A stretch of 64,000 bases of DNA from an uncultured bacterium. GTDB taxonomy: Bacteria > Verrucomicrobiota > Kiritimatiellia > RFP12 > UBA1067. Both the position numbers and the translations under genes were made by a program. The DNA lies in the NCBI GenBank assembly GCA_902802945.1, contig CADCOC010000002.1, positions 9,853 to 73,852 on the forward strand, read 5' to 3'. A model generated the notes under the pieces. That model did no database searches, was not told the DNA's origin, and was given only the letters and a program-made list of their open reading frames with translations. Each line of letters begins with the position of its first letter. The stretch's first letter is position 1. Below, in pieces: positions 9,234 through 61,940 of this stretch.

Positions 9234-9284
9234 CCCGCTCAAAAATCCCCTCGCCCTAGGGAGACAGCTTCTACCGCGTGGCTT

Positions 9285-10037: not shown

Positions 10038-10072
10038 CCCCCTTGCAACAGGCAAGGGGGATTTGGTAAACT
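10038..10072 (+). promoter_or_regulatory. Promoter of the giant gene, TTGCAA(10043-48)-N18-(TG)TAAACT(10067-72). It is overlapped by the hairpin CCCCCTTGC-aacag-GCAAGGGGG (10038-10060).
   Basis: Read directly. The same 'TGGTAAACT' extended -10 occurs before tRNA-Ser at 61750-61758. Confidence 0.4.
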
Positions 10073-10171
10073 TCACTTGACTTGGAGAAGGCATGGCCAG
10101 CGGCAGGGCGGCGAAATGGGAGTTTCGTCGGCAGGCAGGTGGCATGGATGATGATAAAAAGGAGCCCAAAC

Positions 10172-32113: not shown

Positions 32114-33331
32114 ATGAAGAATGCAGTTCTAGCATTGACGGCGGCTGTTTCCACATTGTGCGCCACGGCAACGGAGTATGACGTGACTCGCTACGGCGCG
32201 AAGCCGGACGGCGCGACGGACAACACCGCCGCCATCCAGAAGGCGATCGACGACTGCGCCGCGAAGGGCGGCGGACGCGTCCTCGTGCCCGGCGGCGGCA
32301 AGTACGTGACCTACACCCTCAACCTCAAGAACAACGTGGAGCTGCACGTCGACCGCGGCGCGACGCTCCTCGGCGGCGAGGATCCGTTCAAGTACCCCGT
32401 GTTCGAGACAAACGCCGTGTGGAACGCCGAGCGTTCCCCGCGCTTCAACCGCCGCGCGATGTTCTACACAGTCGGGCAGACGAACGTGGCCATCACCGGT
32501 TCGGGCACGATCGACGGCAACGCGGAGAAGTTCCATCACGAGGAGAAGCATAACAACTGGACCGGCTACCGCTGGTTCCGCAACAGCCACACGAACATCA
32601 CGGGACGCTGCGTGTTCTTCGTGGGCTGCCGCGACGTGCGCCTCGACGACGTGCTGATCCTGCATCCCGCCGGGTGGAGCACGTGGTTCCTCGACTGCGA
32701 CCGCGTGGGCGTGCGCGGCGTGCGCATCGAGGCGGACAGGCGCTTCCCCAACGGTGACGGACTCCACTTCGGCGGCTGTCGTGACGTGGTCGTCTCGGAC
32801 TGCATCGTCCATTCCCAGGACGACGCGCTCATCCTGCGCACGCACCAGGAGCAGATGAAGAAGCCGCGTCCCTGCGAGCGCGTGGTCGTGAACAACTGCA
32901 TCCTCAACTCCTACGGCGCGTATGCGATCCGCATCGGCTGGACGGGAGACGGCCCCGTGCGCGACATCACGGTGAACAACATCGTGAGTACGATTTCCCG
33001 GGCCGGCGTCGGCTTCACGCTGCCGCCCGAGCCGCCCGCGCCGAAGGAGTACATGGACCCGCCGCGCGGACGCGGACTCGTCCCGCCCCCGCTTTCGGAG
33101 CGGCTGCCGTTCTACGCCGAGAACATCCACTTCTCGAACATGACGATATACGGCTCCCGCGCCCCGCTCGACATCTCCATCGGCGACAACCAGCGCGTGG
33201 ACTACATCAAGAACATCTCCTTCTCGCACTGCCGCTTCAAGTCGCCGAACCTGCCGCGCACCAGGTTCCACGAGCGGAACAACGTCCGCGACTGGTGCTT
33301 CAGCGACGTCGTCTTCGAGATCGGCGAGTGA
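32114..33331 (+). CDS. Glycoside hydrolase family 28 / pectate-lyase-fold (polygalacturonase-like) secreted enzyme
   Basis: Signal peptide. YDVTRYGAKPDGATDNTAAIQKAIDDCAAKGGGRVLVPGG is the GH28 N-terminal signature. Beta-helix repeats follow. RBS 'aaaaggagaaac'. Confidence 0.75.
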   Translation: MKNAVLALTAAVSTLCATATEYDVTRYGAKPDGATDNTAAIQKAIDDCAAKGGGRVLVPGGGKYVTYTLNLKNNVELHVDRGATLLGGEDPFKYPVFETNAVWNAERSPRFNRRAMFYTVGQTNVAITGSGTIDGNAEKFHHEEKHNNWTGYRWFRNSHTNITGRCVFFVGCRDVRLDDVLILHPAGWSTWFLDCDRVGVRGVRIEADRRFPNGDGLHFGGCRDVVVSDCIVHSQDDALILRTHQEQMKKPRPCERVVVNNCILNSYGAYAIRIGWTGDGPVRDITVNNIVSTISRAGVGFTLPPEPPAPKEYMDPPRGRGLVPPPLSERLPFYAENIHFSNMTIYGSRAPLDISIGDNQRVDYIKNISFSHCRFKSPNLPRTRFHERNNVRDWCFSDVVFEIGE

Positions 33332-33397
33332 CCGCAGCACGACGCGGGGATATTGTGATACGGCATGTCCAAATCTAAAACGGAGACCTGTTGAAAG

Positions 33398-34042
33398 ATG
33401 CGGCTTTACCATGGATCTAAATCTGGCTTGACGGGGACGATCGCCCCCGTTAGCCGTGATGTCTGCGACTTCGGACGTGGCTTCTACATGGGCACGGAGA
33501 AGACGCAGCCGCTTACGCTCATCTGCCATGGCGAGTCGCCTAAGTTCTACGAGATCGACTATGATCTTGACGGGTTGCGTGTATATCGTTTTGAGGCAAA
33601 CTTGGACTGGGCCATGTTCGTGGTGTGGAACAGACGGGCGATTCCTGAACGGCTCAAGCCGTATTACGACGAAAAGTTCCTGCCAATAGTGCAATCGAAC
33701 GACGTGATTGTCGGCAAGATCGCCAATGACCGCATGGTTGTGGTGTTGGACTGGTTCTTTCAGGGATTCATTTCCGACATCGGACTTCTGGAGTCGCTTC
33801 AGGCGCTTAACCTCGGCGACCAGTACTGCGCAAAGACGGCGGAGGCTTGTACGCGCGTCAGAATCGTGAACGAAAAGTCGCTTTCGCCCAACGAATGCGA
33901 AATGTTGCGCGTCAAATCAGAGAATCAGCGCAAACTCGCCGTAAGGATGGTGGATCGCATCAGGCTCCTCCATCGCCGCGATGGAATGATCTTTCAGGAA
34001 ATCATCGAGCGAGACACGGGGAGGAAATGGGATGAACCTTGA
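33398..34042 (+). CDS. DUF3990 domain protein
   Basis: MRLYHGSKSGLTGTIAPVSRDVCDFGRGFYMGTEKTQPLT matches the DUF3990 N-terminal signature (LYHGS...DFG.GFY). This is the first gene of the low-GC island. Confidence 0.7.
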   Translation: MRLYHGSKSGLTGTIAPVSRDVCDFGRGFYMGTEKTQPLTLICHGESPKFYEIDYDLDGLRVYRFEANLDWAMFVVWNRRAIPERLKPYYDEKFLPIVQSNDVIVGKIANDRMVVVLDWFFQGFISDIGLLESLQALNLGDQYCAKTAEACTRVRIVNEKSLSPNECEMLRVKSENQRKLAVRMVDRIRLLHRRDGMIFQEIIERDTGRKWDEP

Positions 34043-34466
34043 CGTGTTCCAGATGCAGCAATGCGAGAACCAGGGACGGCTCTTCGAGAGCCTTGACCGG
34101 CGTCCCGTCGACGCGAAGGCGTTTATCAAGGCGTTCATGAACTCGCGTGCGGCGGCGGGGCTGGACTCGACCTTCGATCATTTCCAGTGGGCTGGCATCG
34201 AATACATCTACGAGGATGTCGTGGAGGAGTTCAACCTCCAGCCAGATCCGAACCCGCCGCGCTACAACACCGAGGCGCTTTGGTACGGCGGCTATATCAC
34301 GCGCTACTGGCACTATCTCACGGGCGAGACGATGAAGGAAATCTACTCCCAGTGCGATGAGAATCTTCTGCTTCAGTGCTACGGTTTCCATTCCGAAGCC
34401 AACGAATTGGCCATCGAGGACATCAAGGCGATAGCACAAAACAGGATCGGGGATAATATGGTATAA
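34032..34466 (+). CDS. Hypothetical protein with a DUF3791-like C-terminal region. It is a partner of DUF3990 and overlaps it by 11 nt.
   Basis: The C-terminal ...MKEIYSQCDENLLLQCYGFHSEANELAIEDIKAI resembles the DUF3791 pattern seen in the 36681 and 37381 proteins. Confidence 0.45.
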   Translation: MNLDVFQMQQCENQGRLFESLDRRPVDAKAFIKAFMNSRAAAGLDSTFDHFQWAGIEYIYEDVVEEFNLQPDPNPPRYNTEALWYGGYITRYWHYLTGETMKEIYSQCDENLLLQCYGFHSEANELAIEDIKAIAQNRIGDNMV

Positions 34467-34467
34467 T
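34459..34467 (+). promoter_or_regulatory. Extended -10 TGGTATAAT, overlapping the stop of the upstream gene and ahead of the ATPase gene
   Basis: 'ataatatggtataatact', then 'gaaagga' and ATG 34498. Confidence 0.35.
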
Positions 34468-34497
34468 ACTTCCCGGTTTAGAAAGGAATTCTTGCCA

Positions 34498-35802
34498 ATG
34501 GCATGTACAACTCTTACATTGAAATTAGAGAACTACAAGGCGATAAGGGATGCCACCATCGCACTTGATGACATCACTGTACTTTCGGGAGTCAATGCAT
34601 CTGGGAAGAGTACCATTGCTCATGTATTCCACGGTATCATAAACCTCAGCGCAACTTATAATGAATGGGCGATCAGGTCTGCATGGTCAATGCTCGCGCC
34701 GCTCGTATGGGAGATAGCAAGTTTGGTTGGAAGGTTGTCCAATGGGAATGGTTATGAAGGAGGTGCGCTGAACAATGCCATCGTTGATGATTTTGATCGC
34801 AATCTGCTCGTGCGTCCGTATTCCGATACGATCAAGGCCGTGAGTGATGTTTTGTCCAATATCGGAGACCAGATCGTCGCTCGTAAGGAAGATGAAAGTG
34901 CAATAAGGGCTTTTGACGTTTTCCTTAGAAACATCTCTAAGCACAATGAGATATCGGCCGAAAACTATGCCGCACGAGTCAGAAACCTGTTGGGCGAGTC
35001 GCAGGCGAAATACGAGGAATTGATTCGCCAACGTGTTTATACGGCATACAATGTTGCTGCTCCTAAGATGCGCGATTGGCTGATGTTTCCCGGGACAATT
35101 CGTTTTTCAGAGGGCGATACGGTCGTATATCATACGAAGAAGACCCAAACGAGCAATGCCCAGCCGATGTCGGACTTGAAAGAAATCTACGGCGTAAAGA
35201 GGGCAATCTACATTGAGTCGCCGTGGACAAGCATTCCGACACTACAGAAAGACGGGCGGCTTGATATGCACGACGGGTATGTTTATCCTGTCGGGAAATT
35301 GAGTAATCAACCGAAAGCTGGATTGTTTGAAGTCTTAGGCGGTAGCTTGAAAAACGAAGATGGACATTGGCAGTATTTGCGTAAAGATGGCTTGCCGCCT
35401 ATCGACCTTTCAATATGTGCGACCGGCATGAAGGCGCTGTCCATCCTCGAGATTTTGCATGATGGCGGGTATTTGGACGACGACACGCTCTTGATCGTTG
35501 ACGAGCCAGAAGCCCACTTGCACCCGCAATGGGTATTTGAGTATGCCAAGATTCTCGTGGCTTTGAACCGCAAGTACCAAGTGCGCCTGCTCATTACCAG
35601 TCACAATCCCGACATGGTCAACGCCATCAGGACAATAGCAGATGAAGAAGGAGTGGAGGGTTTGCGCTTTTATGTGTCGGAACCCGTCAACGACAGTCCA
35701 TACGATTTCACCTATCGAGACCTTGGGCGCGATATCGAACCGATCTTCGCGACTTTCAACAAGGCGCTTGATAGCATAGAGTCTTACCGGGGGCGCGCTT
35801 GA
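34498..35802 (+). CDS. ABC/AAA_21-type (SMC/RecF-like) ATPase. It is a component of a candidate two-gene defence or abortive-infection-like module.
   Basis: Walker A LSGVNASGKSTI, a signature-like CATGMKALSILEIL, Walker B LLIVDEPEAHLHPQ and an H-loop ITSHNPD. The architecture is typical of defence-island ATPases. Confidence 0.65.
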   Translation: MACTTLTLKLENYKAIRDATIALDDITVLSGVNASGKSTIAHVFHGIINLSATYNEWAIRSAWSMLAPLVWEIASLVGRLSNGNGYEGGALNNAIVDDFDRNLLVRPYSDTIKAVSDVLSNIGDQIVARKEDESAIRAFDVFLRNISKHNEISAENYAARVRNLLGESQAKYEELIRQRVYTAYNVAAPKMRDWLMFPGTIRFSEGDTVVYHTKKTQTSNAQPMSDLKEIYGVKRAIYIESPWTSIPTLQKDGRLDMHDGYVYPVGKLSNQPKAGLFEVLGGSLKNEDGHWQYLRKDGLPPIDLSICATGMKALSILEILHDGGYLDDDTLLIVDEPEAHLHPQWVFEYAKILVALNRKYQVRLLITSHNPDMVNAIRTIADEEGVEGLRFYVSEPVNDSPYDFTYRDLGRDIEPIFATFNKALDSIESYRGRA

Positions 35803-36425
35803 TGCGTATTTTATCGGGACAGGGCGGCAGGATTTTCCTCACGGATGCGATTCACCCAGTATCCAATGAGTGCATTGGGTTGAGGGATGGAATGCAGAAG
35901 ATGTTTGACGAAGGCATTTCCGCGCTTGACACCAATGAAGACCTCGACGAGACCGTGCGTGCTGTCGCACGGAATGACCTTGAACAGGAACGACCCGCCT
36001 GCAATGAAATCGCGGATTCGCTTTATGTGGTCAATGGCGACGCATGGTCGAACCGCATTGACGCCGAGGCCGGCCAGCCCTTTGCCAAATCTGTCGATTT
36101 GCTCGTGCCAGTTGAGGAGGACGGCTCTTCGTCTATCCTGTTTGTCGAGGGCAAGTTGGGGCTTGCACCTCGCGAACGGCGAAGCCGGCTGCGAAATCCG
36201 CGCTATGCCGATGTGGTAGAGAAATACTGCGCGACAAAATCAAAGGTCTGTCGAGAACATCCCGTCATGCTCTGTCGGACAATGAATCTGATCGTGCCAG
36301 CAGCCGTGCGTGAAGTGGCGCGGAACACATTCTCCCGTCGAAACATGACGAATCAAGTTTGCAGCATCATGCCAATTGACGCACGTGGATTCCTTTTCGG
36401 AATTGGAGTGCCAACCGTCAACTAA
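35802..36425 (+). CDS. Hypothetical 207-aa protein translationally coupled to the ATPase (1-nt TGATG overlap). It is the candidate effector subunit.
   Basis: No confident family. It contains an acidic 'SSILFVEGKLG' motif reminiscent of TOPRIM/DUF4276 (ilvEG) motifs, and a C/H-rich CATKSKVCREHPVMLC stretch. Confidence 0.4.
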   Translation: MRILSGQGGRIFLTDAIHPVSNECIGLRDGMQKMFDEGISALDTNEDLDETVRAVARNDLEQERPACNEIADSLYVVNGDAWSNRIDAEAGQPFAKSVDLLVPVEEDGSSSILFVEGKLGLAPRERRSRLRNPRYADVVEKYCATKSKVCREHPVMLCRTMNLIVPAAVREVARNTFSRRNMTNQVCSIMPIDARGFLFGIGVPTVN

Positions 36426-36497
36426 AGAAAGAGGGAAAATTGAAATGAACGGGCGTGCGCGCATCATTCTTCATACTTGTGCTACATGGGTCGAAAA

Positions 36498-36506
36498 TGG
36501 TATAAT
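36498..36506 (+). promoter_or_regulatory. Extended -10 TGGTATAAT upstream of the DUF3791/DUF3990/LRR operon
   Basis: 'aaaatggtataattaaa', then 'gagggaag' and ATG 36533. Confidence 0.4.
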
Positions 36507-36532
36507 TAAAGCCGTCTGAGGGAAGTGACTGA

Positions 36533-36706
36533 ATGAGCGAAGAGGAAAAGAACAATCTATTCTACGTCTGCTCCCTGATCGAGTATGTGGGGCGCAGGAC
36601 CGCAGGACGAAGAACCGTCGCGGCGACGTGGTCGCCGCGATGGACGACGCTTGCCTCAAAAACAAGTCGGAGGTGCTGCCGTGAGCACAACTTCCATAAC
36701 GAATAA
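36533..36706 (+). CDS. Small ORF (57 aa) with a DUF3791-like N-terminus (NLFYVCSLIEYVG). It is possibly a decayed DUF3791 paralog.
   Basis: Good RBS. The C-terminal half is Arg-rich and low-complexity, and it overlaps the next gene. Confidence 0.3.
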   Translation: MSEEEKNNLFYVCSLIEYVGRRTAGRRTVAATWSPRWTTLASKTSRRCCREHNFHNE

Positions 36707-36917
36707 GCGCGAATTGGAATTCGCCGTGTTCTGCATTGAAAACGTCGCTGCAGCTTGTGGAAAGTCGTCAGGCGATGTCTATCGGGCGTTGTCCGGTGAG
36801 GACGGCATCCTTCATCAATACATCGTGCCGAGTTATGATGTTCTTCACACGCAAGGGAAGGACTACATCGTCAACGACATCCGCGAGGTCATGGCGGAGA
36901 GAGGTGTCGTCGTATGA
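36681..36917 (+). CDS. DUF3791 domain protein
   Basis: GTG start after 'ggaggtg'. LEFAVFCIENVAAACGKSSGDVYRALSGEDGILHQYIVPSYDVLHTQGKDYIVNDIREVM is a canonical DUF3791. Confidence 0.7.
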   Translation: MSTTSITNKRELEFAVFCIENVAAACGKSSGDVYRALSGEDGILHQYIVPSYDVLHTQGKDYIVNDIREVMAERGVVV

Positions 36918-37384
36918 TTCTCTACCATGGCGGAGCCGTTGCGATTGCAGCGCCAGATCTCCTACACTCTCGTAGGGCTGTTGACTTTGGCCCTGGATTC
37001 TACGTGACGCCCATATATGATCAAGCGAGAAGGTGGAGCGAAAAACGGAAAAGGCGCTTGGGCGCTGCCGTCGTATCGAAGTATGAGTTTGATGAAGACG
37101 CTGCCGCAAACCTTAAGATTTTGCGGTTCGATTCATATTCCGAGGCATGGCTTGATTTCATCGTAAAATGCCGCGCGATTGAAGATGATTCTGATTGGGA
37201 TGTCGTATCCGGAGGCGTTGCCAATGACAAGGTGTTTGACACGCTTGAAGCATTCTTTGATGGCTTCGCAACGAAAGCTCAGACCATTGACAGGTTGCGG
37301 ATGGAATCGCCAAACATGCAGTATTGCTTTCGAACTCAGGCTGCTTTGGGCATGCTGCATTTCACGGGGAGCGAGCAGATATGA
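36914..37384 (+). CDS. DUF3990 domain protein (second copy)
   Basis: MILYHGGAVAIAAPDLLHSRRAVDFGPGFYVTPIYDQARRWSEKR. It overlaps the upstream gene by 4 nt. Confidence 0.7.
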   Translation: MILYHGGAVAIAAPDLLHSRRAVDFGPGFYVTPIYDQARRWSEKRKRRLGAAVVSKYEFDEDAAANLKILRFDSYSEAWLDFIVKCRAIEDDSDWDVVSGGVANDKVFDTLEAFFDGFATKAQTIDRLRMESPNMQYCFRTQAALGMLHFTGSEQI

Positions 37385-37602
37385 CGGCGAACAAGAACCT
37401 GCTTCGGATGAAATTCGCCCGTGTGATCGAGGCGTATGCCGCCCGCACTGGCTGTTCGCTTGACGAGGCGCTGGATTGCTTCTATCGCTCGCAGACCTAC
37501 GAGTTGATGCGTGATGGCATATCAGACATGCATTGCATGAGCGACGAGTATCTCGTAGATGAATTGATTGATGAAAAAAACTTGAAAGGAACGGGAAAAT
37601 GA
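37381..37602 (+). CDS. DUF3791-like small protein
   Basis: ATGA overlap with the upstream gene. LRMKFARVIEAYAARTGCSLDEALDCFYRSQTYELMRDGISDMHCMSDEYLVDELI follows the DUF3791 pattern. Confidence 0.55.
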   Translation: MTANKNLLRMKFARVIEAYAARTGCSLDEALDCFYRSQTYELMRDGISDMHCMSDEYLVDELIDEKNLKGTGK

Positions 37603-39383
37603 AAAAGGCAATTTTGTTTTTTGCCGCGATGGCGGCAACAATGGCGGCACTCACCGCGCACGCCGATAACTGGACCGATCCCTCAACGGGCATCACGTGG
37701 ACGTACACGGTCAGCAGTGGCAATGCGTCGTTGGGACGTGGGTGGGATTCTCCCGCCGTACCAACCACAACAACTGGCGCATTGACCATCCCATCCACAA
37801 TCAACGGCCATTCCGTGACTAGCATAGGGGAACGTGCGTTCTCTAGTTGCAGTGGGCTTACGAGCGTGATGATACCCGACAGCGTGACGAGCATCGGGCC
37901 TTCTGCGTTCCGCAATTGCAGCGGTCTTACGAACATGACGATACCTGACTCGGTGACGAGCATCGGGGATGGGGCGTTCGATTGTAGTGGATTGACGAAT
38001 GTTACGATACCTGACGGCGTGACGAGCATTGGTAATGAAGCGTTCTTCTATTGCAGCGGTCTTACAAGCGTGACGATACCGGACAGCGTGACGAGCATCG
38101 GGTATCGGGCATTTTCCTACTGTAGCGGGCTTCTGTCTTTTACTGTCGGCGATGGCAATGTAAACTACAAGTCGGTAAACGGCTTGTTGTTGTCTAAGGA
38201 TGACAAGACGCTTATTGCAGGCGTAAATGGCGACGTGATGATACCGGATGGCGTGACGAGTATAGATGATGCGGCGTTTAGCGATCGTAGCGGGCTTACG
38301 AGCGTGACGATACCGAACAGTGTGACAAACATCGGGTATTCTGCGTTCTCCAGCTGCAGCGGTCTTACGAGCGTGACGATACCTGACTGCGTGACGAACA
38401 TCGGTAATGAAGCGTTCAGGGGTTGCAGTGGGCTTAAGAGTGTGAAGATCGGCAACGGCGTTATGAGCATCGGGATTAATGCGTTCTACAATTGCAGCGG
38501 ACTTACGAGCGTGACATTCCTTGGACATCCTCCGCAGGGAGTATCAGATTCCTGCCTGGGTACTTATGCCTGTAGTTTCAAGTGTCCGAGACAATTAGGC
38601 TCTGAATATATCAGTTTATTAGGCAGGTCAAAGTTTTCGGGATTTGTTGAGGACCTGCCATTGACGGTTGTGCAGATTATATCTTCTGGCATTCGCGAAA
38701 ACGATCCGACGGTGATGGATGTGGTATATAAGGTTACGAGCGCAAAACCGACGGTCAAAGTGCGGGCGTTGGCGTTTGAGGATGGCGAGCGGAGTTTTGC
38801 CAAGGTAGTACGTCCGGAAGCATTCGTGAACGACTCCGATGGTAATTCTACGGCGCAGAACATCGGTGATGCGGTTGTGGCCAATGTGCCGCATAAACTT
38901 TCATGGAAAGTGTCGAGCGAATGGGCTACGAGACTTGCAAAGGTGAAGTTCGAGGTGCTGGCGTGTGAGGGCGAACCATTGCGTTTGGAGTTGCGCACGA
39001 TTCCCGCATCAGACCAATACGGCAAGATGAAGATTTCTTGGAATGTTATTTCAGACGCCCAATTTTTGGATGCAATGTTTTGGCTGTATGCTGATAAGGA
39101 TAGTGGATTTAAAGTGGAGAATGGAATCATAAAGCGTACATCGGATAATTTCTTGATGTCCTATGATGGGTGCGCTATCTCGACATTTTCTCGTAATTCT
39201 AGGCAGTATGTCAATGGCGTGCGGAATTACTATGATTTTGCATCCGTTCCAGAGTATGTTTTTGCGAAGATGGGGTATTCTTTGCTTTCGGGCGATACGC
39301 TGACCTACGCCAATCAGGAGACCCGCCTTGGCTTGTCGCCGAGTGGCGCACGCCAATATGCCTACAAGATCGTGGAGGAGTAA
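37599..39383 (+). CDS. Secreted BspA-type leucine-rich-repeat (LRR_5) cell-surface protein with a C-terminal domain of unknown function
   Basis: Signal peptide MKKAILFFAAMAATMAALTAHA. There are more than 10 repeats of IPDSVTSIG..AF..CSGLTSV. The start overlaps the stop of the upstream DUF3791 gene (ATGA). GC is low. Confidence 0.8.
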   Translation: MKKAILFFAAMAATMAALTAHADNWTDPSTGITWTYTVSSGNASLGRGWDSPAVPTTTTGALTIPSTINGHSVTSIGERAFSSCSGLTSVMIPDSVTSIGPSAFRNCSGLTNMTIPDSVTSIGDGAFDCSGLTNVTIPDGVTSIGNEAFFYCSGLTSVTIPDSVTSIGYRAFSYCSGLLSFTVGDGNVNYKSVNGLLLSKDDKTLIAGVNGDVMIPDGVTSIDDAAFSDRSGLTSVTIPNSVTNIGYSAFSSCSGLTSVTIPDCVTNIGNEAFRGCSGLKSVKIGNGVMSIGINAFYNCSGLTSVTFLGHPPQGVSDSCLGTYACSFKCPRQLGSEYISLLGRSKFSGFVEDLPLTVVQIISSGIRENDPTVMDVVYKVTSAKPTVKVRALAFEDGERSFAKVVRPEAFVNDSDGNSTAQNIGDAVVANVPHKLSWKVSSEWATRLAKVKFEVLACEGEPLRLELRTIPASDQYGKMKISWNVISDAQFLDAMFWLYADKDSGFKVENGIIKRTSDNFLMSYDGCAISTFSRNSRQYVNGVRNYYDFASVPEYVFAKMGYSLLSGDTLTYANQETRLGLSPSGARQYAYKIVEE

Positions 39384-39386
39384 GGG

Positions 39387-39480
39387 GCCAAAGAGACAAA
39401 AGGGAGGAACGTGACAAAAGAGACGATAGTGATTGGAGGAGCTGAGGCCAAAGAGGCTTGCAGTCGCTTTTGTCTCTTGG
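39387..39480. repeat. Intergenic cluster of 'CAAAGAGAC' 9-mer repeats forming an inverted repeat (CCAAAGAGACAAAAG ... CTTTTGTCTCTTGG)
   Basis: Read directly at 39389-39403 and 39467-39480. Related 9-mers (GAAGCGACT/AAAGGGACT and their reverse complements) recur at 40201-40304, 41661-41745 and 58364-58391. Confidence 0.6.
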
Positions 39481-39492
39481 AGGGTAATGCCC

Positions 39493-40182
39493 ATGGCTGA
39501 GATACCGAAAATCGTGCTGCCTCATGGCGGCTACCGCAATCTCGTGGCCTACAAAAAGAGCGAAATCGTGTATCAGGGCACGGCGCTCTTCTGTCGCCGC
39601 TTTCTGCCGCCGAATGGCGACCGCACCGTTGACCAGATGCCCCAGGCCGCCCGCAGCTGCAAGCAGAACATCGCCGAAGGCTCGGCCGCAAGCGGTACGT
39701 CGAAGGAAACCGAGCTTAAGCTTACCAACGTCGCGCGGGCAACGCTTGACGAACTGCTGGAAGATTACCTTGATTGGCTCAAGTCACACGGCGAAAGCGA
39801 ATGGACCGCTCGCGACGAGCGCAAGATCAAGGCCCGCGACCTCGGCAAGGAGCACGACGACTGGGAGTTCTGGCAGCCGCTCCTTGAATCGCGTCCGGCG
39901 GAGGTTGTCGCCAACCTGATGATCGTGATCATCTACCAGACGCGCTACCTCCTTGATCGCATGATCGCCTTTCAGGAAGCGGATTTCACGAAACACGGCG
40001 GTGTGCGCGAGCGGATGCACGCCGCCCGCACGGTAGCTCGCGGCGATGAATGGGATAAGGCGATCTACTCGCGGCTCGACGGCGCCGCGAACGCCGCAGA
40101 ACTCGCCGAAAGACTGGCCGAGATCAAACGCCAGGCCGAAAAGGCCGCCTGGGGCATTAGGAAGCGGAGGGGTTGGCAATGA
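39493..40182 (+). CDS. Four-helix-bundle protein (TIGR02436, the '23S rRNA intervening sequence protein' / bAvd-like family) with a C-terminal extension
   Basis: PHGGYRNLVAYKKSEIVYQGTALFCRRFLP...DQMPQAARSCKQNIAEGSA is the family signature. RBS 'ggaggg'. Confidence 0.65.
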   Translation: MAEIPKIVLPHGGYRNLVAYKKSEIVYQGTALFCRRFLPPNGDRTVDQMPQAARSCKQNIAEGSAASGTSKETELKLTNVARATLDELLEDYLDWLKSHGESEWTARDERKIKARDLGKEHDDWEFWQPLLESRPAEVVANLMIVIIYQTRYLLDRMIAFQEADFTKHGGVRERMHAARTVARGDEWDKAIYSRLDGAANAAELAERLAEIKRQAEKAAWGIRKRRGWQ

Positions 40183-42914
40183 GAATTAGAAGGGCGGAAG
40201 AAGCGACGGAAGCGACTAAAGGGACTAAAGCGACGGAAGCGACCAAAGCGACTGCTAGGGGCTTTCGCAGGAGTCGCTTGGGTCTCTTGAGTCTCTTTGG
40301 TCTCTTGATTCCCATGGGGCTTTTTGCCGATATCGTGCATGTTTACGAGCGGTCGCTGGCTGGCGGCGTAGCCAGCCAGATGAGCGACCGTACGCTCGAC
40401 ACCGGCAATACCTACTCAACCCAAAGCGCCCCCGCGAAGAGCGGCTACATCTTCACCCACTGGTCGATTTCGGTTGCGCAGCCAATCGATAACCGCGACC
40501 GTTTGGGTCGGGCGAAAGAAGTTACATCATTCACGCTCTACGAGGAAACCACGCTCACGGCCAACTATCTGGCTGAAGGTGAGGATTCCGACAACGACGG
40601 CATCGCCGACGGCTGGGAAATCTATTGGTATGGCGACCTTTCAAAGAATGCTTCGAGCGATACCGACAACGACGGCTTCACCTTCGCTGAGGAACTCGCG
40701 GCGGGTACCGACCCGCTTATGCCCGACGAATCGCTTCCCGGAGGCATCGTTTGGCAGGATGGCGCGCTTGTGCAGTACAATCCCGACAACCTTCAGCCCT
40801 ATACGATTCGCAGCGAGCCGGAAGGCGCGCTCTTCGCGACGGTAAGAGACTATCTGAAGCCGGGGCAGGTGATACCTATACCATATTCAGGGACACAAGG
40901 AACGCAAGGGACAGGTTTTGCATACTGGACGATCGACGGCGTGCGTCAGGCCGATAGGCACGGAAGGGCGCTTGACACGCTTTCGGTGACGATGCCGAAC
41001 ACTGCAATCGAGATTGTTGCCGTCTCCGAGAGCGACGAGGCGAAGCGCAATTCGCTCTACTGGTACGGCACCGCTTCCGTTGCGCAGAACAGCGACACCG
41101 ACAACGACGGCTTCACCTTTGCCGAGGAACTGGCGGCGGGCACCGATCCGCTAATGCCCGACGAATCGCTTCCCGGAGGCATCGTCTGGCAGGATGGCGC
41201 GCTTTTGGAAATGAACCTCCAGCCCTACGAGCAGGTGCTAGGCGCAGTCGTTGGCGGGGCGTATTCGCAGGTGTTTACTTCGCCAGTCGCTGGCAACGCC
41301 GCCACGAGCGCGACCTTCGGCAACGGCGGCGCCGTGTGGCCGGTGGTGGCCGATGTGAATGGCGATGGGCTGTGGGATTTGGTGGTGTGTTGGGAAGGTG
41401 AAGGGGAAGAGACGCAAGGGACTGCACCGCTTACACAATCGCTGACCATTTTCATCAATGTGGGCACCAAGGGCAACCCCGAGTTTGAGGTTGATGTGAG
41501 CGGCGCGCTCGGCGAGCGCGCCCTACCGTGGCTGGCGATGAACTCGCCCGAGAAGCTTGCCGGGCTTTCGCTCGACGTGCCTGCGCCGGGTGATGCGCTT
41601 TCGGCCACCACCAACGGCACCGCGCTTCTGGTGAGCGATAGCGAGGGCCGAATCTGGTATTATAAAGGGACGCAAGCGACAGAAGCGACTGAAGGGACTT
41701 CACCAACATCCCAGTCGCTTGAGTCTCTTGAGTCTCTTTCGTCGCTTTCCTTCACCCTCCAGCACAAGGTGTGGGGGGGCTCACACGCCGGCTTTGCGCA
41801 GGGGCTACGGCTCGCGGCGGTTGACTGGGATGATGATGGCGATCTCGACTGCCTTGCGGGTACCGCCGACGGCAAGCTGATGCTGTTGCGCGATCCGAAG
41901 GTGGGGCGGCCCACGAACCTGAAGGCGCTCGCTGGCGTGGATAACGTGCTGCTCACGTGGGATCCGAACGCGCAGAGCCGCATCAGGGGGTATAGGGTTT
42001 ATCGTGCGGAGGGGGAAGGAACAGCAAGCGTACAACAACAAGGTGGGGAGTCGACTTCGGGGACTGAGGGCTTTACGCGGATTGCGCAGCCGCAGCTGCC
42101 GACTTACCGCGATTTCCCGAACGGCGGTCACGGGGTGACCGCCCTACCGGAATACGCCTACAAGGTATCATCGGTGAGCCGGTTCTACACCGCCGGCAAC
42201 TCGACGCCCACGGAAACGGAATCGCCCGCGACCGAGGCGGTGACGGCGCGGCTGGGCAGCGTGCGCTTCTTCTGGAACGACGCGGCTACGAAGGTGGGCG
42301 AGCAGTTCGAGGTGATGCTTTCAATAGAAAACTCGATGAACTACTCCGTGACTGGCCAGACTGAGGTGGTTGCCTACGATCCAGAGTATTTGACGCCCGT
42401 GAAGGTGGTGAAAACGGGGCTCACGGAGGAGTGTGTGATTGAAGAGACTCACGGGACGAAAGAGACGCAAGGGACAGGGACGGAAGTGACCGGCGAGTGG
42501 CGGATCACGGTGAGTGGCGCGAGCGGGACAGCAAGCGTACAACAGCAAGGTGGGGCGGTCATTTTGCCGGCTGGCGGCGGGAAGTTCCTTTCGCTCGTTT
42601 TTGAAGCGAAGAAGGAGGGCGTGACGACGGTCGGCGGTCGCGGGGCGACCGCCCTGCCGGCGAGCGATGGGGCGTATGCCACGGTGAGCATTGCGGCGCG
42701 CTCGGTGATCGCGCCCTACCAGCTCGGCGACGTGGATGGCGACGGCGATGTGGATGAGGCCGATTTGCGGCTTCTGGCGAAGCTGTATAGTTCGCAGGGG
42801 GGCGCATCTATCGATGACAATCAGCGCAAGGCAGGCGATTTCAACGGAAACGGTAAGCTCGACAATGCTGATTACCAGGCGTTGAGGGCGTTGTTGAAAG
42901 AAAGGGGACTTTGA
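40179..42914 (+). CDS. Large secreted protein with TSP3-like (DTDNDG) repeats, FG-GAP/VCBS repeats, an Fn3 domain, a cohesin-like domain and a C-terminal type-I dockerin
   Basis: Dockerin DVDGDGDVDEADLRLLAKLY...DFNGNGKLDNADYQALRALL. FG-GAP ADVNGDGLWDLVV and VDWDDDGDLDCLAG. Cohesin-like YDPEYLTPVKVVKTGL. The N-terminal signal anchor is encoded through 9-mer tandem repeats. The gene contains R1, R2 and R3 mini-repeats. Confidence 0.7.
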   Translation: MRIRRAEEATEATKGTKATEATKATARGFRRSRLGLLSLFGLLIPMGLFADIVHVYERSLAGGVASQMSDRTLDTGNTYSTQSAPAKSGYIFTHWSISVAQPIDNRDRLGRAKEVTSFTLYEETTLTANYLAEGEDSDNDGIADGWEIYWYGDLSKNASSDTDNDGFTFAEELAAGTDPLMPDESLPGGIVWQDGALVQYNPDNLQPYTIRSEPEGALFATVRDYLKPGQVIPIPYSGTQGTQGTGFAYWTIDGVRQADRHGRALDTLSVTMPNTAIEIVAVSESDEAKRNSLYWYGTASVAQNSDTDNDGFTFAEELAAGTDPLMPDESLPGGIVWQDGALLEMNLQPYEQVLGAVVGGAYSQVFTSPVAGNAATSATFGNGGAVWPVVADVNGDGLWDLVVCWEGEGEETQGTAPLTQSLTIFINVGTKGNPEFEVDVSGALGERALPWLAMNSPEKLAGLSLDVPAPGDALSATTNGTALLVSDSEGRIWYYKGTQATEATEGTSPTSQSLESLESLSSLSFTLQHKVWGGSHAGFAQGLRLAAVDWDDDGDLDCLAGTADGKLMLLRDPKVGRPTNLKALAGVDNVLLTWDPNAQSRIRGYRVYRAEGEGTASVQQQGGESTSGTEGFTRIAQPQLPTYRDFPNGGHGVTALPEYAYKVSSVSRFYTAGNSTPTETESPATEAVTARLGSVRFFWNDAATKVGEQFEVMLSIENSMNYSVTGQTEVVAYDPEYLTPVKVVKTGLTEECVIEETHGTKETQGTGTEVTGEWRITVSGASGTASVQQQGGAVILPAGGGKFLSLVFEAKKEGVTTVGGRGATALPASDGAYATVSIAARSVIAPYQLGDVDGDGDVDEADLRLLAKLYSSQGGASIDDNQRKAGDFNGNGKLDNADYQALRALLKERGL
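42126..42150 (+). repeat. R1 in-frame palindromic mini-repeat (GGTCACGGGGTGACCGCCCTACCGG), encoding GHGVTALP
   Basis: Family consensus is GGYC(R)(S)rGGGc(K)GRCC-GCCCTRCCG. Other copies are at 42636-42660, 42973-42996, 47245-47317 (an inverted pair) and 48799-48823. Confidence 0.75.
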
Positions 42915-42915
42915 T

Positions 42916-44307
42916 ATGGTGAGAGAGATAGAGATGCGGAATACAACAAGCGTACAACAGCAAGTTGGCGGCGGTCGCGGGGCGACCGCCCTACCGTGGT
43001 GGCGTGTTGCGGCGCGCTCGGGGATCGCGCCCTACCGGTGGTGGGTGGCACTTCTGGCGATGGTTGTTGCGCCGGTGGCGTTGGCCTATCAGGTTTCAGT
43101 GGGCACGTATGTGGCGAATGCGGGGCGGCAAATCACCGTGCCGGTTGCGCTGGATTCGGCGGCGGGGCTTTCCTACGCGAGCGCCACGATTACCTACGAT
43201 CCGCAGGTGCTAGTGGTCACGAAGGCCGAGGCGGGGTCGCTCAAGTCGCTGATGGCGGAGGATTTCGTGGCGGTTGATACGAACGGCATGCTGACGGTCT
43301 CGATCTTCGGTTCGACGGACGCGAACGTTGCAAGCGGCTCCGGCTCGATTGCCAACGTCACGTTCGCGGTGCGCGAAGGGACGGCGGGGCTCTACTCCGA
43401 CTTGGCCGTGAGCAGCGTCGAACTCGGCGAGAAGTCGGGTGTGAAGGATGTCACGGCGGGGAATCCGGTTCAGACAGTGAGCGGAATGGTGCGCGTGATG
43501 GGCGAGACCGCCGAGGTGACGCGTCTGGAGAACGCCGAAATCGTCGTTGCCGATACCGCTTTGGGTGCGCTGTCGCTCAGCGCGGGCGATGCGATTCAGG
43601 CGAGCGATGCGCAAACGGCGATTCGGGTGTCCGGCGCGGTGTCGGCATCGGGCGCAATCGCCGTCAAGGCACCGGCGAACGGATGGGCAAGCGGAACCTA
43701 CGCGCTTCTCTCCACGACCACGGCGGGGTTGGCGTTCAGCCTGGAAGGGGTGGACGGCGCGACGTTCTCCACCGAGACGGCGAATGGCGTGACGACGTAC
43801 TACGCGGCGGTTTCCGTTGCTGGCGAGATTCCCGTGACCTGTGCGGCGGAGGTATTGTCCGCCGGGGCGAAGAACCAGATTCGGTCGCTTCTTGCCGGTC
43901 AGTTGTCCGGCGTGACGGAGATTGTCGTGTCGGGTCCGCAGGGGAATGTGGGCTTGATTGCGGACATGGGCATCGCGCCGTCCTGCACGCGCGACGGAAC
44001 GCGTCTGCTGGCAAACTATACGATGCCGGAACTGCGCATCACGCAGTTCGATCCCAAGACGGGGGCGGTGCGCTTCAAGGTGACGCCCGGCGCTGGCAAT
44101 CAGATCGTTTCTGAAATCGCAACGGGGTACATCCACATGTACGGCACGAACAGCCTGAGCGAGAAGATGAAGTACATCTCGCAGGTCGGATTCGACCTCA
44201 CGCCGTATCTCAAGGCCGAAACCAAGGGCGAGGGTACGCTCTACGTTACCCTCGGCACGCATACTTTCCTGAAAGTCAAGATTGAAGCAGAAGTAAAGGA
44301 AGACTGA
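42916..44307 (+). CDS. Cohesin-domain surface protein (N-terminal signal/TM, then a cohesin module)
   Basis: YQVSVGTYVANAGRQITVPVALDSAAGLSYASATITYDPQVLVV...VTFAVREGTAG is cohesin-like. Its first ~40 codons are built from the R3+R1+R2 repeat units. Confidence 0.6.
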   Translation: MVREIEMRNTTSVQQQVGGGRGATALPWWRVAARSGIAPYRWWVALLAMVVAPVALAYQVSVGTYVANAGRQITVPVALDSAAGLSYASATITYDPQVLVVTKAEAGSLKSLMAEDFVAVDTNGMLTVSIFGSTDANVASGSGSIANVTFAVREGTAGLYSDLAVSSVELGEKSGVKDVTAGNPVQTVSGMVRVMGETAEVTRLENAEIVVADTALGALSLSAGDAIQASDAQTAIRVSGAVSASGAIAVKAPANGWASGTYALLSTTTAGLAFSLEGVDGATFSTETANGVTTYYAAVSVAGEIPVTCAAEVLSAGAKNQIRSLLAGQLSGVTEIVVSGPQGNVGLIADMGIAPSCTRDGTRLLANYTMPELRITQFDPKTGAVRFKVTPGAGNQIVSEIATGYIHMYGTNSLSEKMKYISQVGFDLTPYLKAETKGEGTLYVTLGTHTFLKVKIEAEVKED

Positions 44308-44309
44308 CC

Positions 44310-49428: not shown

Positions 49429-49470
49429 ACGCACTTTTCTCGCCGGTGCAGTTGCGGGCGGGGGAGTATA

Positions 49471-49479
49471 TGGTATAAT
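49471..49479 (+). promoter_or_regulatory. Extended -10 TGGTATAAT
   Basis: 'agtatatggtataataacc', 29 nt before ATG 49508 with an A-rich RBS region. Confidence 0.4.
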
Positions 49480-56568: not shown

Positions 56569-56643
56569 TGGCAGCCCCTAGGAGAGTCGAACTCCTCTTC
56601 TCAGGATGAGAACCTGATGTCCTAGCCGATAGACGAAGGGGCC
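56569..56643 (-). tRNA. tRNA-Glu (anticodon CTC)
   Basis: GGCCCCTTCGTCTATCGGCTAGGACATCAGGTTCTCATCCTGAGAAGAGGAGTTCGACTCTCCTAGGGGCTGCCA is a cloverleaf with anticodon loop TTCTCAT and an encoded CCA. It closely resembles E. coli tRNA-Glu. There is a G1-U72 wobble. Confidence 0.85.
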
Positions 56644-56647
56644 AGCC

Positions 56648-56732
56648 TGGTGCACCCGGTGGGATTTGAACCCACACACCTTGCGGCACTAGAACCTGAA
56701 TCTAGCGTGTATGCCAATTTCACCACGGGTGC
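56648..56732 (-). tRNA. tRNA-Leu (anticodon CAG)
   Basis: GCACCCGTGGTGAAATTGGCATACACGCTAGATTCAGGTTCTAG...GGGTTCAAATCCCACCGGGTGCACCA has a long variable arm and an encoded CCA. Confidence 0.85.
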
Positions 56733-61623: not shown

Positions 61624-61707
61624 GGGCGCGTGGTGAAATGGCAGACACGCTGGATTTAGGTTCCAGTTCCGCAAGGAGTGGGGGTTCAAGTCCCCCCGCG
61701 CCCACCA
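61624..61707 (+). tRNA. tRNA-Leu (anticodon TAG)
   Basis: GGGCGCGTGGTGAAATGGCAGACACGCTGGATTTAGGTTCCAG...GGGGGTTCAAGTCCCCCCGCGCCCACCA has a long variable arm. Confidence 0.85.
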
Positions 61708-61729
61708 TCAAATTTCAATCGCCAGGTGC

Positions 61730-61758
61730 TTGACGGCGGGGCGGGGACTTGGTAAACT
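61730..61758 (+). promoter_or_regulatory. Sigma70 promoter TTGACG-N17-(TG)TAAACT upstream of tRNA-Ser
   Basis: Read directly. The extended -10 TGGTAAACT is identical to the one before the giant gene. Confidence 0.5.
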
Positions 61759-61774
61759 ATTCCCCGCTTTCCAC

Positions 61775-61864
61775 GGAGAGGTGGCAGAGCCTGGTTGAAT
61801 GCACATGACTCGAAATCATGCATACCGCAAGGTATCGGGGGTTCGAATCCCTCCCTCTCCGCCA
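61775..61864 (+). tRNA. tRNA-Ser (anticodon CGA)
   Basis: GGAGAGGTGGCAGAGCCTGGTTGAATGCACATGACTCGAAATCATG...GGGGGTTCGAATCCCTCCCTCTCCGCCA has a long variable arm. Confidence 0.8.
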
Positions 61865-61866
61865 AG

Positions 61867-61940
61867 GCGGGCGTAATTCAATGGCAGAATAGGAGCTTCC
61901 CAAGCTTCTTACGTGGGTTCGATTCCCATCGCCCGCTCCA
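61867..61940 (+). tRNA. tRNA-Gly (anticodon CCC), followed by a T7 run
   Basis: GCGGGCGTAATTCAATGGCAGAATAGGAGCTTCCCAAGCTTCTTACGTGGGTTCGATTCCCATCGCCCGCTCCA. Confidence 0.85.

Follow-up and report, generated by a model that had tools for sequence, protein, structure and literature searches.

The low-GC stretch described here, on a rumen Kiritimatiellae chromosome, is a nested mosaic of three separate candidate toxin-type modules and an exported LRR protein. Its insertion point is the linker of a former single two-domain gene, GH28-X, GH28 being a pectinase family. We consider it probable that the whole is a horizontally acquired, nested islet in that linker, made up of three autonomous modules, the LRR cargo and a four-helix/dockerin/cohesin block.

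Across the window (the entire 64,000-nucleotide stretch that was analysed), GC fell from about 0.64 (flank range 0.61-0.68) to 0.47-0.56 over 33.3-39.4 kb, in agreement with the drop reported in a sequence-only reading of this DNA. The codon-usage profile also deviated from the flanks: GC3 was 0.84-0.91 in the host genes there and 0.53-0.77 in the island genes, with 0.53-0.62 in the ATPase, nuclease-like partner, DUF3791a, short DUF3990 and LRR genes and 0.635 in DUF3791b. Island genes all ran in one direction, overlapping or separated by short gaps, and the genes listed in that reading were all present, together with the three ATGA overlaps (36914, 37381 and 37599). Its limits of 33332-39480 correspond to the low-GC part, but the closest relatives lack a longer segment, 33328-44380. 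This 11-kb segment runs 4.9 kb further, over a part with near-native GC. Its features are as follows.

33328..33397, no strand: left junction of the insert; alignment with L005 and L006 diverges at ~33327.
33398..34042, +: module 1, long-form DUF3990, 214 aa, predicted ART-fold toxin, PDC-M42A-like (Pfam DUF3990 E 7.5e-28).
34032..34466, +: module 1, 144-aa partner, PDC-M42B-like, presumed antitoxin (PADLOC PDC-M42B E 5.7e-5).
34458..34467, +: extended -10-like motif ATGGTATAAT, with the start codon of the ATPase 31 nt downstream.
34498..35802 (start also given as 34492), +: module 2, ABC-type ATPase, 434 aa, AAA_15/AAA_21 (E 2.8e-17 and 2.2e-11), presumed sensor or motor.
35802..36425, +: module 2, ATPase partner, 207 aa, presumed PD-(D/E)xK-type nuclease effector; start overlaps the ATPase stop (TGATG).
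36497..36506, +: extended -10-like motif ATGGTATAAT upstream of module 3.
36533..36706, +: frameshifted remnant mini-ORF, 57 aa, DUF3791-like/PDC-M10B N-terminus (PADLOC PDC-M10B E 7.5e-9, residues 1-28 only).
36681..36917, +: module 3, DUF3791 protein, 78 aa, PDC-M13A, presumed antitoxin (Pfam E 1.8e-18; PADLOC PDC-M13A E 3.3e-32).
36914..37384, +: module 3, short DUF3990, 156 aa, PDC-M13B, predicted ART-fold toxin (Pfam E 3e-49; PADLOC E 9e-60).
37381..37602, +: module 3, second DUF3791 protein, 73 aa, PDC-M13C (Pfam E 4e-7; PADLOC PDC-M13C E 1.5e-33).
37599..39383, +: exported BspA-type LRR protein, 594 aa (Pfam LRR_5 E 3e-65; Sec signal peptide MKKAILFFAAMAATMAALTAHA).
39433..44307, +: rest of the insert, near-native GC; L005, L006 and L008-L011 lack it between GH28 and X.
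39433-40182, +: four-helix-bundle protein (NCBIfam 4helix_suffix E 8e-19).
40173-42914, +: TSP3/dockerin-type protein, 913 aa (Pfam label from the L001 gene calls).
42916-44307, +: cohesin-domain protein (Pfam label from the L001 gene calls).
44310..44380, +: right junction, at which the X716 gene has a new start codon and signal peptide; homology to the L005/L006 fused genes resumes at ~44381.

In eight related Kiritimatiellae loci (L005, L006, L009, L010, L014, L016, L017 and L024), spanning 52-95% identity in X, GH28 was fused in frame to the gene found at 44310 in the window (X), and the site is therefore empty there. The GH28 stop codon was created within 33328..33397, at a point where the reading frame of relatives continues into the fused X domain, as in the fused ORF of L005. 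Two further relatives, L008 and L011, carried only the PDC-M42-type pair at the GH28/X site, and the X gene of L008 had a similar new N-terminus (MKKAIT...). The deviant composition and the absence of the segment from the eight fusion loci support the earlier suggestion of horizontal acquisition.

Module 3 matched all components of PDC-M13 in order (genes 36681-37602; E 3e-32, 9e-60 and 1.5e-33 for A, B and C), with M13A starting at GTG rather than ATG and M13C scoring 30.3 bits for Pfam DUF3791 against a cutoff of 25. PDC-M13, PDC-M42 and PDC-M10 are PADLOC candidate systems (Payne et al. 2024, guilt-by-embedding), so that the description of DUF3990/DUF3791 pairs as functionally uncharacterised holds for experiments, but the pairs are already catalogued. 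The window cassettes differ from these systems in their setting: instead of being embedded in BREX, DISARM or type I R-M, they have an ABC-ATPase module and an LRR gene as neighbours. The mini-ORF ahead of the triplet matched only the N-terminus of PDC-M10B; in the close relative L149 it was intact (48 aa, GTGA overlap with the next gene), relative to which the window copy is frameshifted, bearing out its description as a decayed DUF3791 fragment. The DUF3791-DUF3990-DUF3791 order was kept in about 44 distinct loci at identities down to 56%, and M13 stood without the other two modules in more than 40 loci. Its neighbours were mostly unrelated, largely housekeeping genes rather than defence islands, some of them on the opposite strand.

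The LRR protein carries the motif WTDPxTGxxWTY at its N-terminus and ends in a domain of no known family. Its gene start overlaps the M13C stop (ATGA), no TGGTATAAT promoter-like motif was found between the two genes, and it is probably co-transcribed cargo of module 3. The coupling had been called unusual; the overlap is real but not unique, because the M13C-LRR junction also overlaps or abuts in L121 and L124, thus recurring in two diverged lineages, and the LRR orthologue lies directly 3' of the ATPase pair, without M13, in L092-94. The DUF3990/DUF3791 genes might be addiction or regulatory cassettes that stabilise or drive variable surface-protein genes downstream (exported LRR or other repeat proteins), and not phage defences. 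In a small and phylogenetically non-independent sample, an LRR gene was immediately downstream at 5/33 loci versus 3/85 for other neighbours (p = 0.038), against a background of 2 LRR regions per about 290 kb. In L117 and L130 an LRR gene lay no more than about 0.5 kb away, LRR-linked cassettes were scattered over the DUF3990 tree, other downstream genes encoded Sel1, Flg_new/GLUG or FGE-sulfatase secreted proteins, and the same LRR subfamily followed other TA/defence-like genes in L092-94 and L164-167. However, most M13 loci have unrelated or opposite-strand neighbours; the downstream gene in L107 has its own TGGTATAAT motif, and a cytoplasmic toxin-antitoxin pair has no obvious physical link to an exported LRR protein. 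We regard this explanation as unlikely, although the recurring LRR adjacency is left unaccounted for by the nested-islet model.

Module 1 matched PDC-M42A and PDC-M42B over their full length (33398-34466), yet the two genes have diverged strongly (A, E 2e-9; B, E 5.7e-5), with ~30% identity to the canonical pair that L011 carries at the GH28/X site (PDC-M42B, E 7e-48). The long DUF3990 was 96% identical to its counterpart in L008 and 80% to that in L086. The 144-aa partner gene overlaps it by 11 nt, and residues 8-131 of the protein align to positions 10-135/138 of the PDC-M42B profile. A Pfam search of this protein returned no DUF3791 match and no other Pfam match, and its designation as DUF3791-like draws solely on the PDC-M42B match and a weak profile-profile similarity (P about 0.003-0.005). 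The two DUF3990 genes in the window shared only 30% identity and fall into separate families (PDC-M42-like and canonical PDC-M13), which rules out a cassette duplication. The proposed duplication around a defence-like module was thus not upheld, each module also occurring alone elsewhere (L008/L011, L092/L090 and more than 40 M13 loci).

In module 2, the ATPase matched the PADLOC models NsnB (3.5e-20), AriA (2e-19) and HEC-02A (1e-17), AriA was its nearest solved structure (E 1.6e-5), and the translation contains Walker A (GVNASGKST) and Walker B (LLIVDEPE). Known models fitted only the Walker A end and the C-terminal signature/Walker B end, which marks the central insert of ~250 aa as distinct. 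The 207-aa partner had no match in Pfam, PADLOC, NCBIfam or PHROG and belongs to a very rare family (10 clusters in 5.8e9 proteins; 20 clusters in 1.84e9). Within this family D99, E116, K118, G120 and K141 were invariant at 20-28% identity, the first three forming a nuclease-like D…E-x-K motif, and the structure model (pLDDT 79.5) placed D99 and ExK on a beta-hairpin. Foldseek matches were individually non-significant (best E 0.04, TM about 0.3) yet enriched for restriction-endonuclease folds, and the protein is presumed to be a PD-(D/E)xK-like nuclease effector. Wherever the upstream sequence could be read, an ABC ATPase gene lay directly 5' of the partner homologue, across partner identities of 25% to 100% and at host GC 0.39-0.57; the contigs of the remote homologues L155-L159 are 1-2 kb, placing their neighbours out of range. 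HEC-02, an ABC ATPase with a NERD PD-(D/E)xK protein, has been validated experimentally as a defence that requires both genes. It resembles module 2 in being a two-gene operon that pairs an AAA_15/AAA_21-type ABC ATPase with a small presumed nuclease carrying a (D/E)xK motif, and Septu, PARIS, Gabija and OLD share the architecture more broadly, but the window partner matches no NERD, TOPRIM, HNH or other model and represents a separate very rare family.

Module breakpoints fell at 34398-34439 and about 36408. The extended -10-like motif ATGGTATAAT occurred in 3 copies in the window versus 0.02 expected, upstream of ATPase genes in L085-L090 and L092, and ahead of either M13A or the mini-ORF in L124, L149 and L131-133; it may act as a promoter. 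The TGGTATAAT motif preceded modules 2 and 3 and not module 1 in the window, and in L011 it preceded PDC-M42A; in relatives it also stood ahead of the ATPase and M13 genes. The occurrence of each module on its own elsewhere, and the separate TGGTATAAT motifs of modules 2 and 3, mark the three as autonomous. One integrated defence system of seven or eight co-oriented genes (33398-37602 or -39383), with DUF3990 ART effectors under ABC ATPase control, would fit the single strand, the short gaps and overlaps, and the four-gene block of long DUF3990, partner, ATPase and nuclease-like gene conserved at 75-86% identity in L085-L089. It is improbable, however, given the M42-type pair alone at the GH28/X site in L008 and L011, the promoter-like motifs ahead of modules 2 and 3, and the ATPase pair with no detectable DUF3990 gene in L092 (a complete context) and in L090 as far as its contig reaches, where the ORF 5' of the ATPase, truncated by the contig end, has no family match. 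Likewise, this ATPase was nearby in none of about 44 distinct PDC-M13 loci.

Both DUF3990 copies keep every residue invariant in the family alignment. For the AF2 model of the short copy (pLDDT 89), Foldseek listed ART-superfamily structures almost throughout, with RES toxin 9r35 at the top (prob 0.97) and VPA0770, ParT and RhsP2 toxin among the other neighbours; scores were moderate (best E 0.013, TM 0.49) and the match is to the overall fold, not to mapped catalytic residues. DUF3990 is hence predicted to have an ART fold, most like that of the toxins RES and ParT from toxin-antitoxin systems. Other likenesses to Xre-RES/ParST are the compact operon, the overlapping small partner gene and the mobile, patchy distribution. 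In contrast, a DUF3990 sequence search of the PDB gave no match and so no sequence similarity to RES, the motifs are YHG...GFY...ND...QxC and not R-E-S, the partner is DUF3791 and not an Xre-HTH/DUF2384 antitoxin, and in PDC-M13 the toxin gene lies between two partner genes. DarTG, which pairs the ART-clan toxin DarT with the macrodomain antitoxin DarG and has a demonstrated anti-phage role, is similar in having an ART-clan toxin in a small operon; the DUF3791 partner, unlike DarG, is no macrodomain enzyme and would have to neutralise the toxin by binding it, since it could not reverse the modification. DUF3990 belongs to the Pfam ART clan, as does DarT (PMC7955679). In Serratia the T6SS effector Rhs5 has DUF3990 as its C-terminal domain, and a small immunity gene lies downstream (PMC4524185). 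Clan membership, structural neighbours and the Rhs-effector domain are consistent with the TA-like role suggested earlier. The Rhs5 arrangement and the RhsP2 neighbour would also suit orphan polymorphic-toxin/immunity modules like those used in Rhs or contact-dependent competition, in place of intracellular TA or defence, but this is slightly less credible still than an integrated system: both DUF3990 proteins stand alone (156 and 214 aa) with the catalytic-domain motif M-x-L-Y-H-G at the very start and no trafficking or Rhs/PAAR region, Rhs, VgrG and secretion genes were not found in the island, and a DUF3791 gene lies 5' of the toxin, as is typical of type II toxin-antitoxin systems.

Least likely of all is that the low GC is a local quirk of fast-evolving, vertically inherited accessory genes lost by deletion in relatives: near-native GC over 39.4-44.3 kb, the four-helix-bundle/dockerin/cohesin block at another position in L020, and the finding of no integrase, transposase, other mobility gene, flanking direct repeat or att-like repeat to account for the insertion would fit it, but the intact fusion in eight relatives is hard to obtain by repeated precise deletion, PDC-M13 cassettes (56-94%) and ATPase-partner pairs (25-75% identity) occur in unrelated contexts at host GC 0.39-0.66, and GC3 is 0.53-0.635 in the ATPase, partner, DUF3791a/b, short DUF3990 and LRR genes versus 0.84-0.91 in the host.

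Under the nested-islet model, DUF3990 would be an ART-fold enzyme that arrests growth, either by NAD+-dependent ADP-ribosylation of a cellular or phage target or by NAD+ depletion. By analogy with Xre-RES and ParST antitoxins, the small helical DUF3791 proteins may bind DUF3990 and hold it inactive, and toxicity would follow once the antitoxin supply fails, for example when the cell is infected or loses the locus. The ATPase may sense a trigger and license nuclease activity of its partner, as proposed for HEC-02, Septu and PARIS, and the LRR protein would be expressed from the transcript of module 3. The island content is mostly ordinary, the exceptions being the very rare ATPase–nuclease-like pair and the recurring, unexplained link to an LRR gene. 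Any anti-phage role is conjectural, and the position of most M13 copies among housekeeping genes is as compatible with a selfish toxin-antitoxin module as with defence.

GC content was 0.61-0.68 in both flanks and fell to 0.47-0.56 across ~33.3-39.4 kb, in agreement with the low-GC island proposed by the sequence-only reading. Third-position GC was likewise non-uniform: GC3 was 0.53-0.77 in the islet genes vs 0.84-0.91 in the flanking genes (a 1107-aa gene, GH28, X716 and Y981). Within the islet, GC3 was 0.69-0.77 in the first cassette, 0.55 in the ATPase gene, 0.59 in its 207-aa partner, 0.53-0.64 in the PDC-M13 genes and 0.58 in the LRR gene. All of the genes that had been listed from the sequence were found, arranged as follows:

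33398-34042, long DUF3990 (Pfam PF13151, 97.6 bits; gathering cutoff 32.2)
34032-34466, 144-aa partner of the long DUF3990
34498-35802, AAA_15/AAA_21 ATPase (Pfam)
35802-36425, 207-aa partner of the ATPase
36533, 57-aa fragment
36681-36917, DUF3791 (Pfam PF12668, 66.7 bits; gathering cutoff 25), start codon GTG; M13A
36914-37384, short DUF3990 (Pfam PF13151, 167 bits; gathering cutoff 32.2); M13B
37381-37602, DUF3791 (Pfam PF12668, 30.3 bits; gathering cutoff 25); M13C
37599-39383, BspA LRR_5 protein with a Sec signal peptide

The ATGA overlaps said to chain the last four genes were read in the sequence at 36914, 37381 and 37599. The 144-aa gene at 34032, taken at first for a DUF3791 member, had no match to Pfam DUF3791 (PF12668), nor had the 36533 fragment. 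The description of this segment as a horizontally acquired, nested toxin/defence islet is correct. Its components belong to known kinds or are variants of them, and only two features go beyond the catalogue: the rare partner family of the ATPase and the repeated proximity of LRR genes. The functions of all islet genes are predicted ones.

The islet combined deviant composition with absence from close relatives, as a genomic island does. The closest relatives of the GH28 protein (66-92% identity) came from rumen Kiritimatiellae/Lentisphaerae MAGs, and four metagenome contigs (L001-L004) represented the same strain as the window (99.7-100% identity). In eight relatives (L005, L006, L009, L010, L014, L016, L017 and L024) the site was empty, and GH28 ran in frame into the protein of 44310-46460 (X) through a link of 18-72 nt without a stop codon. 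We infer from these gene structures that the ancestral state is a single GH28-X fusion gene with an empty site. Relative L008 carried GH28, the long DUF3990 (96% identity), its partner (90%) and then X, whose gene here has a ribosome-binding site and a signal peptide of its own. At exactly the same site, L011 carried a canonical PDC-M42 pair (PADLOC, E = 3e-79 and 7e-48), ~30% identical to the window partner. In the window, 11 kb (33328-44380) separated the GH28 and X halves.

The insertion has split GH28 (32114-33331) and the 716-aa downstream protein (44310-46460) in the window, L008 and L011, leaving a downstream half that acquired a start codon and a signal peptide of its own (MHKKAITFAAGILSAAALAVTA, 44310-44380). 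No integrase or transposase gene was found within 33.3-44.4 kb, no att-like direct repeats flanked the island, no tRNA target lay at it (nearest tRNAs at 56.5 kb), and an Rfam scan of the island returned no RNA family. The window holds two tRNA clusters, at 56572-56732 (minus strand, 2 tRNAs) and 61624-61937 (plus strand, 3 tRNAs), neither of which adjoins the island. Relative L005 had ~1.8 kb extra (8202-10049) between the 1107-aa gene and GH28, absent from the window, and its 1107-aa gene was shorter by about 450 nt.

Loci related to the ATPase pair differed in gene order. In L085-L089 (partner 74-75% identity), the long DUF3990, 144-aa, ATPase and partner genes were followed by an FGE-sulfatase protein, not by PDC-M13 and LRR. 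L090 had the ATPase and partner only, as far as its contig reaches, and L092-L094 (partner 58% identity) had a YhcG fragment, the ATPase, the partner and then an LRR protein, with no DUF3990 present. Nucleotide homology of the window to these loci started at 34398-34439, within the 3' end of the 144-aa gene and coinciding with the breakpoint seen in L008, and stopped at ~36408. These limits, together with the gene orders in L085-L094, indicate that PDC-M13 was inserted between the ATPase pair and the gene for an exported protein. The ATPase block was, in turn, inserted behind an older PDC-M42-type pair.

The remainder of the inserted segment (39.4-44.3 kb) holds four-helix-bundle, dockerin-type and cohesin genes at near-native GC, a block found at another position in L020. 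The four-helix-bundle gene is of the 23S_rRNA_IVP family, relatives of which include the DGR Avd proteins; in L085-L089 (about 4696-5778) its position was occupied by a 360-aa IS200-like Y1_Tnp-domain gene. A diversity-generating retroelement, as might be suggested by the four-helix-bundle gene together with FGE-sulfatase/Lcl_C-type genes in relatives, was considered; no ORF of reverse-transcriptase size was present within 33.3-44.4 kb. Arrays of the 9-nt unit AAGSGACNN and its reverse complement occurred at 39382-42476 (16 matches vs 0.15 expected). Some of these arrays fall within the 913-aa dockerin-type ORF and there code for EATEATKGTKAT... and SLGLLSLFGLL. A long hairpin lies at 40183-40335 (-61 kcal/mol, z = -3.8). 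Five or six copies of a 28-nt palindrome (CGGCGGTCGCGGGGCGACCGCCCTACCG) were present at 41500-43044; they resemble REP elements but lie inside genes, the dockerin-type and cohesin ORFs, where they specify GGRGATALP-type peptides. Within the 913-aa gene, a 435-nt tandem unit (40656-41207) differed in copy number between near-identical strains, with one extra copy in L001 (7895-8007) giving a 1050-aa product.

The two DUF3990 cassettes had been interpreted as a duplication bracketing the ATPase module. This was wrong: the two DUF3990 copies share 30% identity, which rules out a recent duplication. The downstream cassette matched PADLOC PDC-M13 A, B and C in order at 36681-37602 (E = 3.3e-32, 9.3e-60 and 1.5e-33), with co-oriented genes and 4-nt overlaps, and the overlapping A-B-C triplet was kept in ~44 distinct loci, down to 56% identity, wherever the contig allowed. 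More than 1250 close homologues were found. The upstream cassette was assigned weakly to PDC-M42: its DUF3990 matched the PDC-M42A model (E = 2.2e-9), with the generic M13B model matching best (1.2e-19), and the 34032 gene matched PDC-M42B over its full length (E = 5.7e-5). M13A and M13C were distant paralogues (hhalign P 0.002; common motif LHTQGKDYIVNDI vs MHCMSDEYLVDEL), and the 144-aa protein showed weak hhalign likeness to them (P 0.003-0.005). The 36533 fragment had an N-terminal match to PDC-M10B (PADLOC); its counterpart in L149 is an intact 48-aa ORF ending in a GTGA overlap with M13A, and the window copy is frameshifted. Scans of PHROGs and viral contigs revealed no phage-borne relatives of DUF3990 or DUF3791. 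The neighbours of PDC-M13 were mostly housekeeping genes, and defence genes occurred at only ~10% of M13 loci. PDC systems number 145; they are predicted and untested, and were recognised inside BREX, DISARM and type I R-M loci. One survey of rumen genomes reports 3324 calls of PDC-M13, which places it among the most abundant of the predicted defence loci (PMC13356809). No experimental or functional study of these cassettes was found in the literature searched.

DUF3990 is a member of the Pfam ART clan (PMC7955679), and a Serratia Rhs effector carries it as C-terminal domain (PMC4524185). The AF2 model of the 156-aa DUF3990 had a pLDDT of 89 and a pTM of 0.84, and its Foldseek neighbours in the PDB were almost all of the ART superfamily, at moderate scores. 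The top matches were toxins of toxin-antitoxin systems, namely RES (prob 0.97, E 0.013, TM 0.49), VPA0770 and ParT, followed by PARP catalytic domains, the RhsP2 toxin, exotoxin A, diphtheria, pertussis and cholera toxins, and Tpt1. The invariant residues H5, G6, R20, D24, F25, G28, F29, Y30, N104, D105, Q136 and C138 were kept in both DUF3990 proteins of the window. As modelled, DUF3990 has the ART fold; NAD+-dependent activity is predicted only. The likeness to RES and ParT systems lies in this predicted fold, and small overlapping partner genes are also present here. The TA-like role suggested from the sequence alone is reasonable as to gene organisation and RES/ParT analogy, with the function itself a prediction. 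A sharper statement, also reasonable by analogy, would be an ART-fold toxin with DUF3791 antitoxins.

The translated ATPase displayed Walker A, signature and Walker B motifs of the ABC type. It matched NsnB (3.5e-20), AriA (2e-19) and HEC-02A (1e-17) in PADLOC and AriA in the PDB (1.6e-5), resembling known ABC-type defence ATPases at its ends only. Its 207-aa partner had no match in Pfam, NCBIfam, PADLOC or PHROGs, and with the threshold relaxed to E<10 there was still no hit to NERD or any other HMM. Screening all 10 homologues of the partner against Pfam at lenient settings returned nothing, and a PDB profile search with the family gave nothing useful. The family is very small, with 10 clusters among 5.8 billion proteins and 20 representatives among 1.84 billion, and even its remote members, from hosts with a GC of 0.39 and 0.56, have a homologous, overlapping ATPase gene in front of them. 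Among members 20-28% identical, D99, E116, K118, G120 and K141 were the sole invariants, and D80 was nearly invariant. In the partner model (pLDDT 79.5), D99 opens one strand of a beta-hairpin and E116-G-K118 closes the next; this modelled D99...E116-x-K118 arrangement is the PD-(D/E)xK layout. Foldseek gave no significant match to the model (best FokI, E 0.04), and the non-significant list was dominated by restriction-endonuclease folds (BamHI, HincII, MspJI, Cap4, Can2, Mus81 and SPARDA). Among validated systems the closest analogue is HEC-02, which pairs an ABC ATPase with a NERD nuclease and requires both genes; the window pair shares the ABC-type ATPase and has a putative PD-(D/E)xK partner that no NERD HMM matched. 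Such a rare ABC-ATPase/nuclease-like pair is modelled in no current defence catalogue.

The coupling to a surface LRR protein held in part: it recurred beyond the window, although most PDC-M13 neighbours were unrelated housekeeping genes. An LRR_5 gene lay directly downstream of, and co-oriented with, PDC-M13 in the window (ATGA overlap), L121 (1-nt overlap), L124 (abutting), L117 (~430 nt) and L130 (~210 nt), and these cassettes were dispersed over the DUF3990 tree. LRR genes followed PDC-M13 at 5/33 loci vs 3/85 for other neighbours (p = 0.038 in a crude test), against a background of 2 other LRR regions in ~290 kb. The association is real but small. Other genes downstream of PDC-M13 encoded Sel1, GLUG/Flg_new or FGE-sulfatase secreted proteins. 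The LRR N-terminus in L092-L094 (ATWTDPATGINWTYTVSGGKASLG) was clearly orthologous to that of the window. A homology search with the LRR N-terminus yielded mostly contig-end fragments, and three further contexts were examined. The WTDPxTGxxWTY / GITWTYTVS subfamily stood right behind TA/defence-like genes, namely the ATPase-nuclease pair, PDC-M13, or YhcG plus DUF2442, in 5/6 informative contexts (L092-L094, L121, L124, L164-L167; the exception being L160), and the WTDP motif was absent from the rest of the 1.74 Mb of fetched loci.

The C-terminal domain of the LRR protein (38676-39380, residues ~360-594) belongs to no known family. It shared 46-48% identity with the N-terminal region of FGE-sulfatase-domain proteins that stand at this position in L085-L091 and L107, as if domains had been shuffled among the exported proteins of a single locus. 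Elsewhere in the window, 10082-24685 is a single 4867-aa ORF, presumably for a giant surface protein, with an LRR_5-like segment at 15815-17332.

The motif TGGTATAAT was first spotted by eye and then tested. The extended -10-like sequence ATGGTATAAT had 3 copies in the window vs 0.02 expected (34458-34467, 36497-36506 and 49470-49479). Among relatives, TGGTATAAT lay just ahead of the ATPase genes (L085-L090 and L092), ahead of PDC-M42A (L011) and ahead of either M13A or the mini-ORF (L124, L149 and L131-133). No such motif preceded module 1, the long DUF3990 and its partner, in the window, and none lay between M13C and the LRR gene. A promoter/terminator consensus scan did no better than on shuffled sequence. 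The placement of the motif is consistent with one promoter per module, module 1 of the window excepted, and ATGGTATAAT is probably a strong promoter element of this lineage.

A bolder reading, which we consider unlikely, has two separate parts. The ATPase with its D...ExK partner would constitute a two-gene defence family that is very rare and has not been described before. A subfamily of exported BspA-type LRR proteins, with xWTDPxTGxxWTY at the mature N-terminus, would be encoded by the conserved last gene, lacking a promoter of its own, of toxin/defence operons whose upstream modules include PDC-M13, the ABC-ATPase-nuclease pair and YhcG/DUF2442 genes. If true, the LRR protein would be either an exported functional partner, acting for instance as a surface shield or receptor decoy, or cargo mobilised and stabilised by the toxin modules.

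The locus leaves current concepts unchanged and extends those of ART toxins, ABC-ATPase defences and defence islets. Genomes with an empty, partly filled and fully filled site form a natural series on how modules stack up. They also record the break-up of a two-domain glycoside hydrolase gene by an insertion, after which its downstream half came to carry a separate signal peptide. For PDC-M13, the locus gives a testable model in which an ART-fold toxin would be checked by two DUF3791 paralogues.
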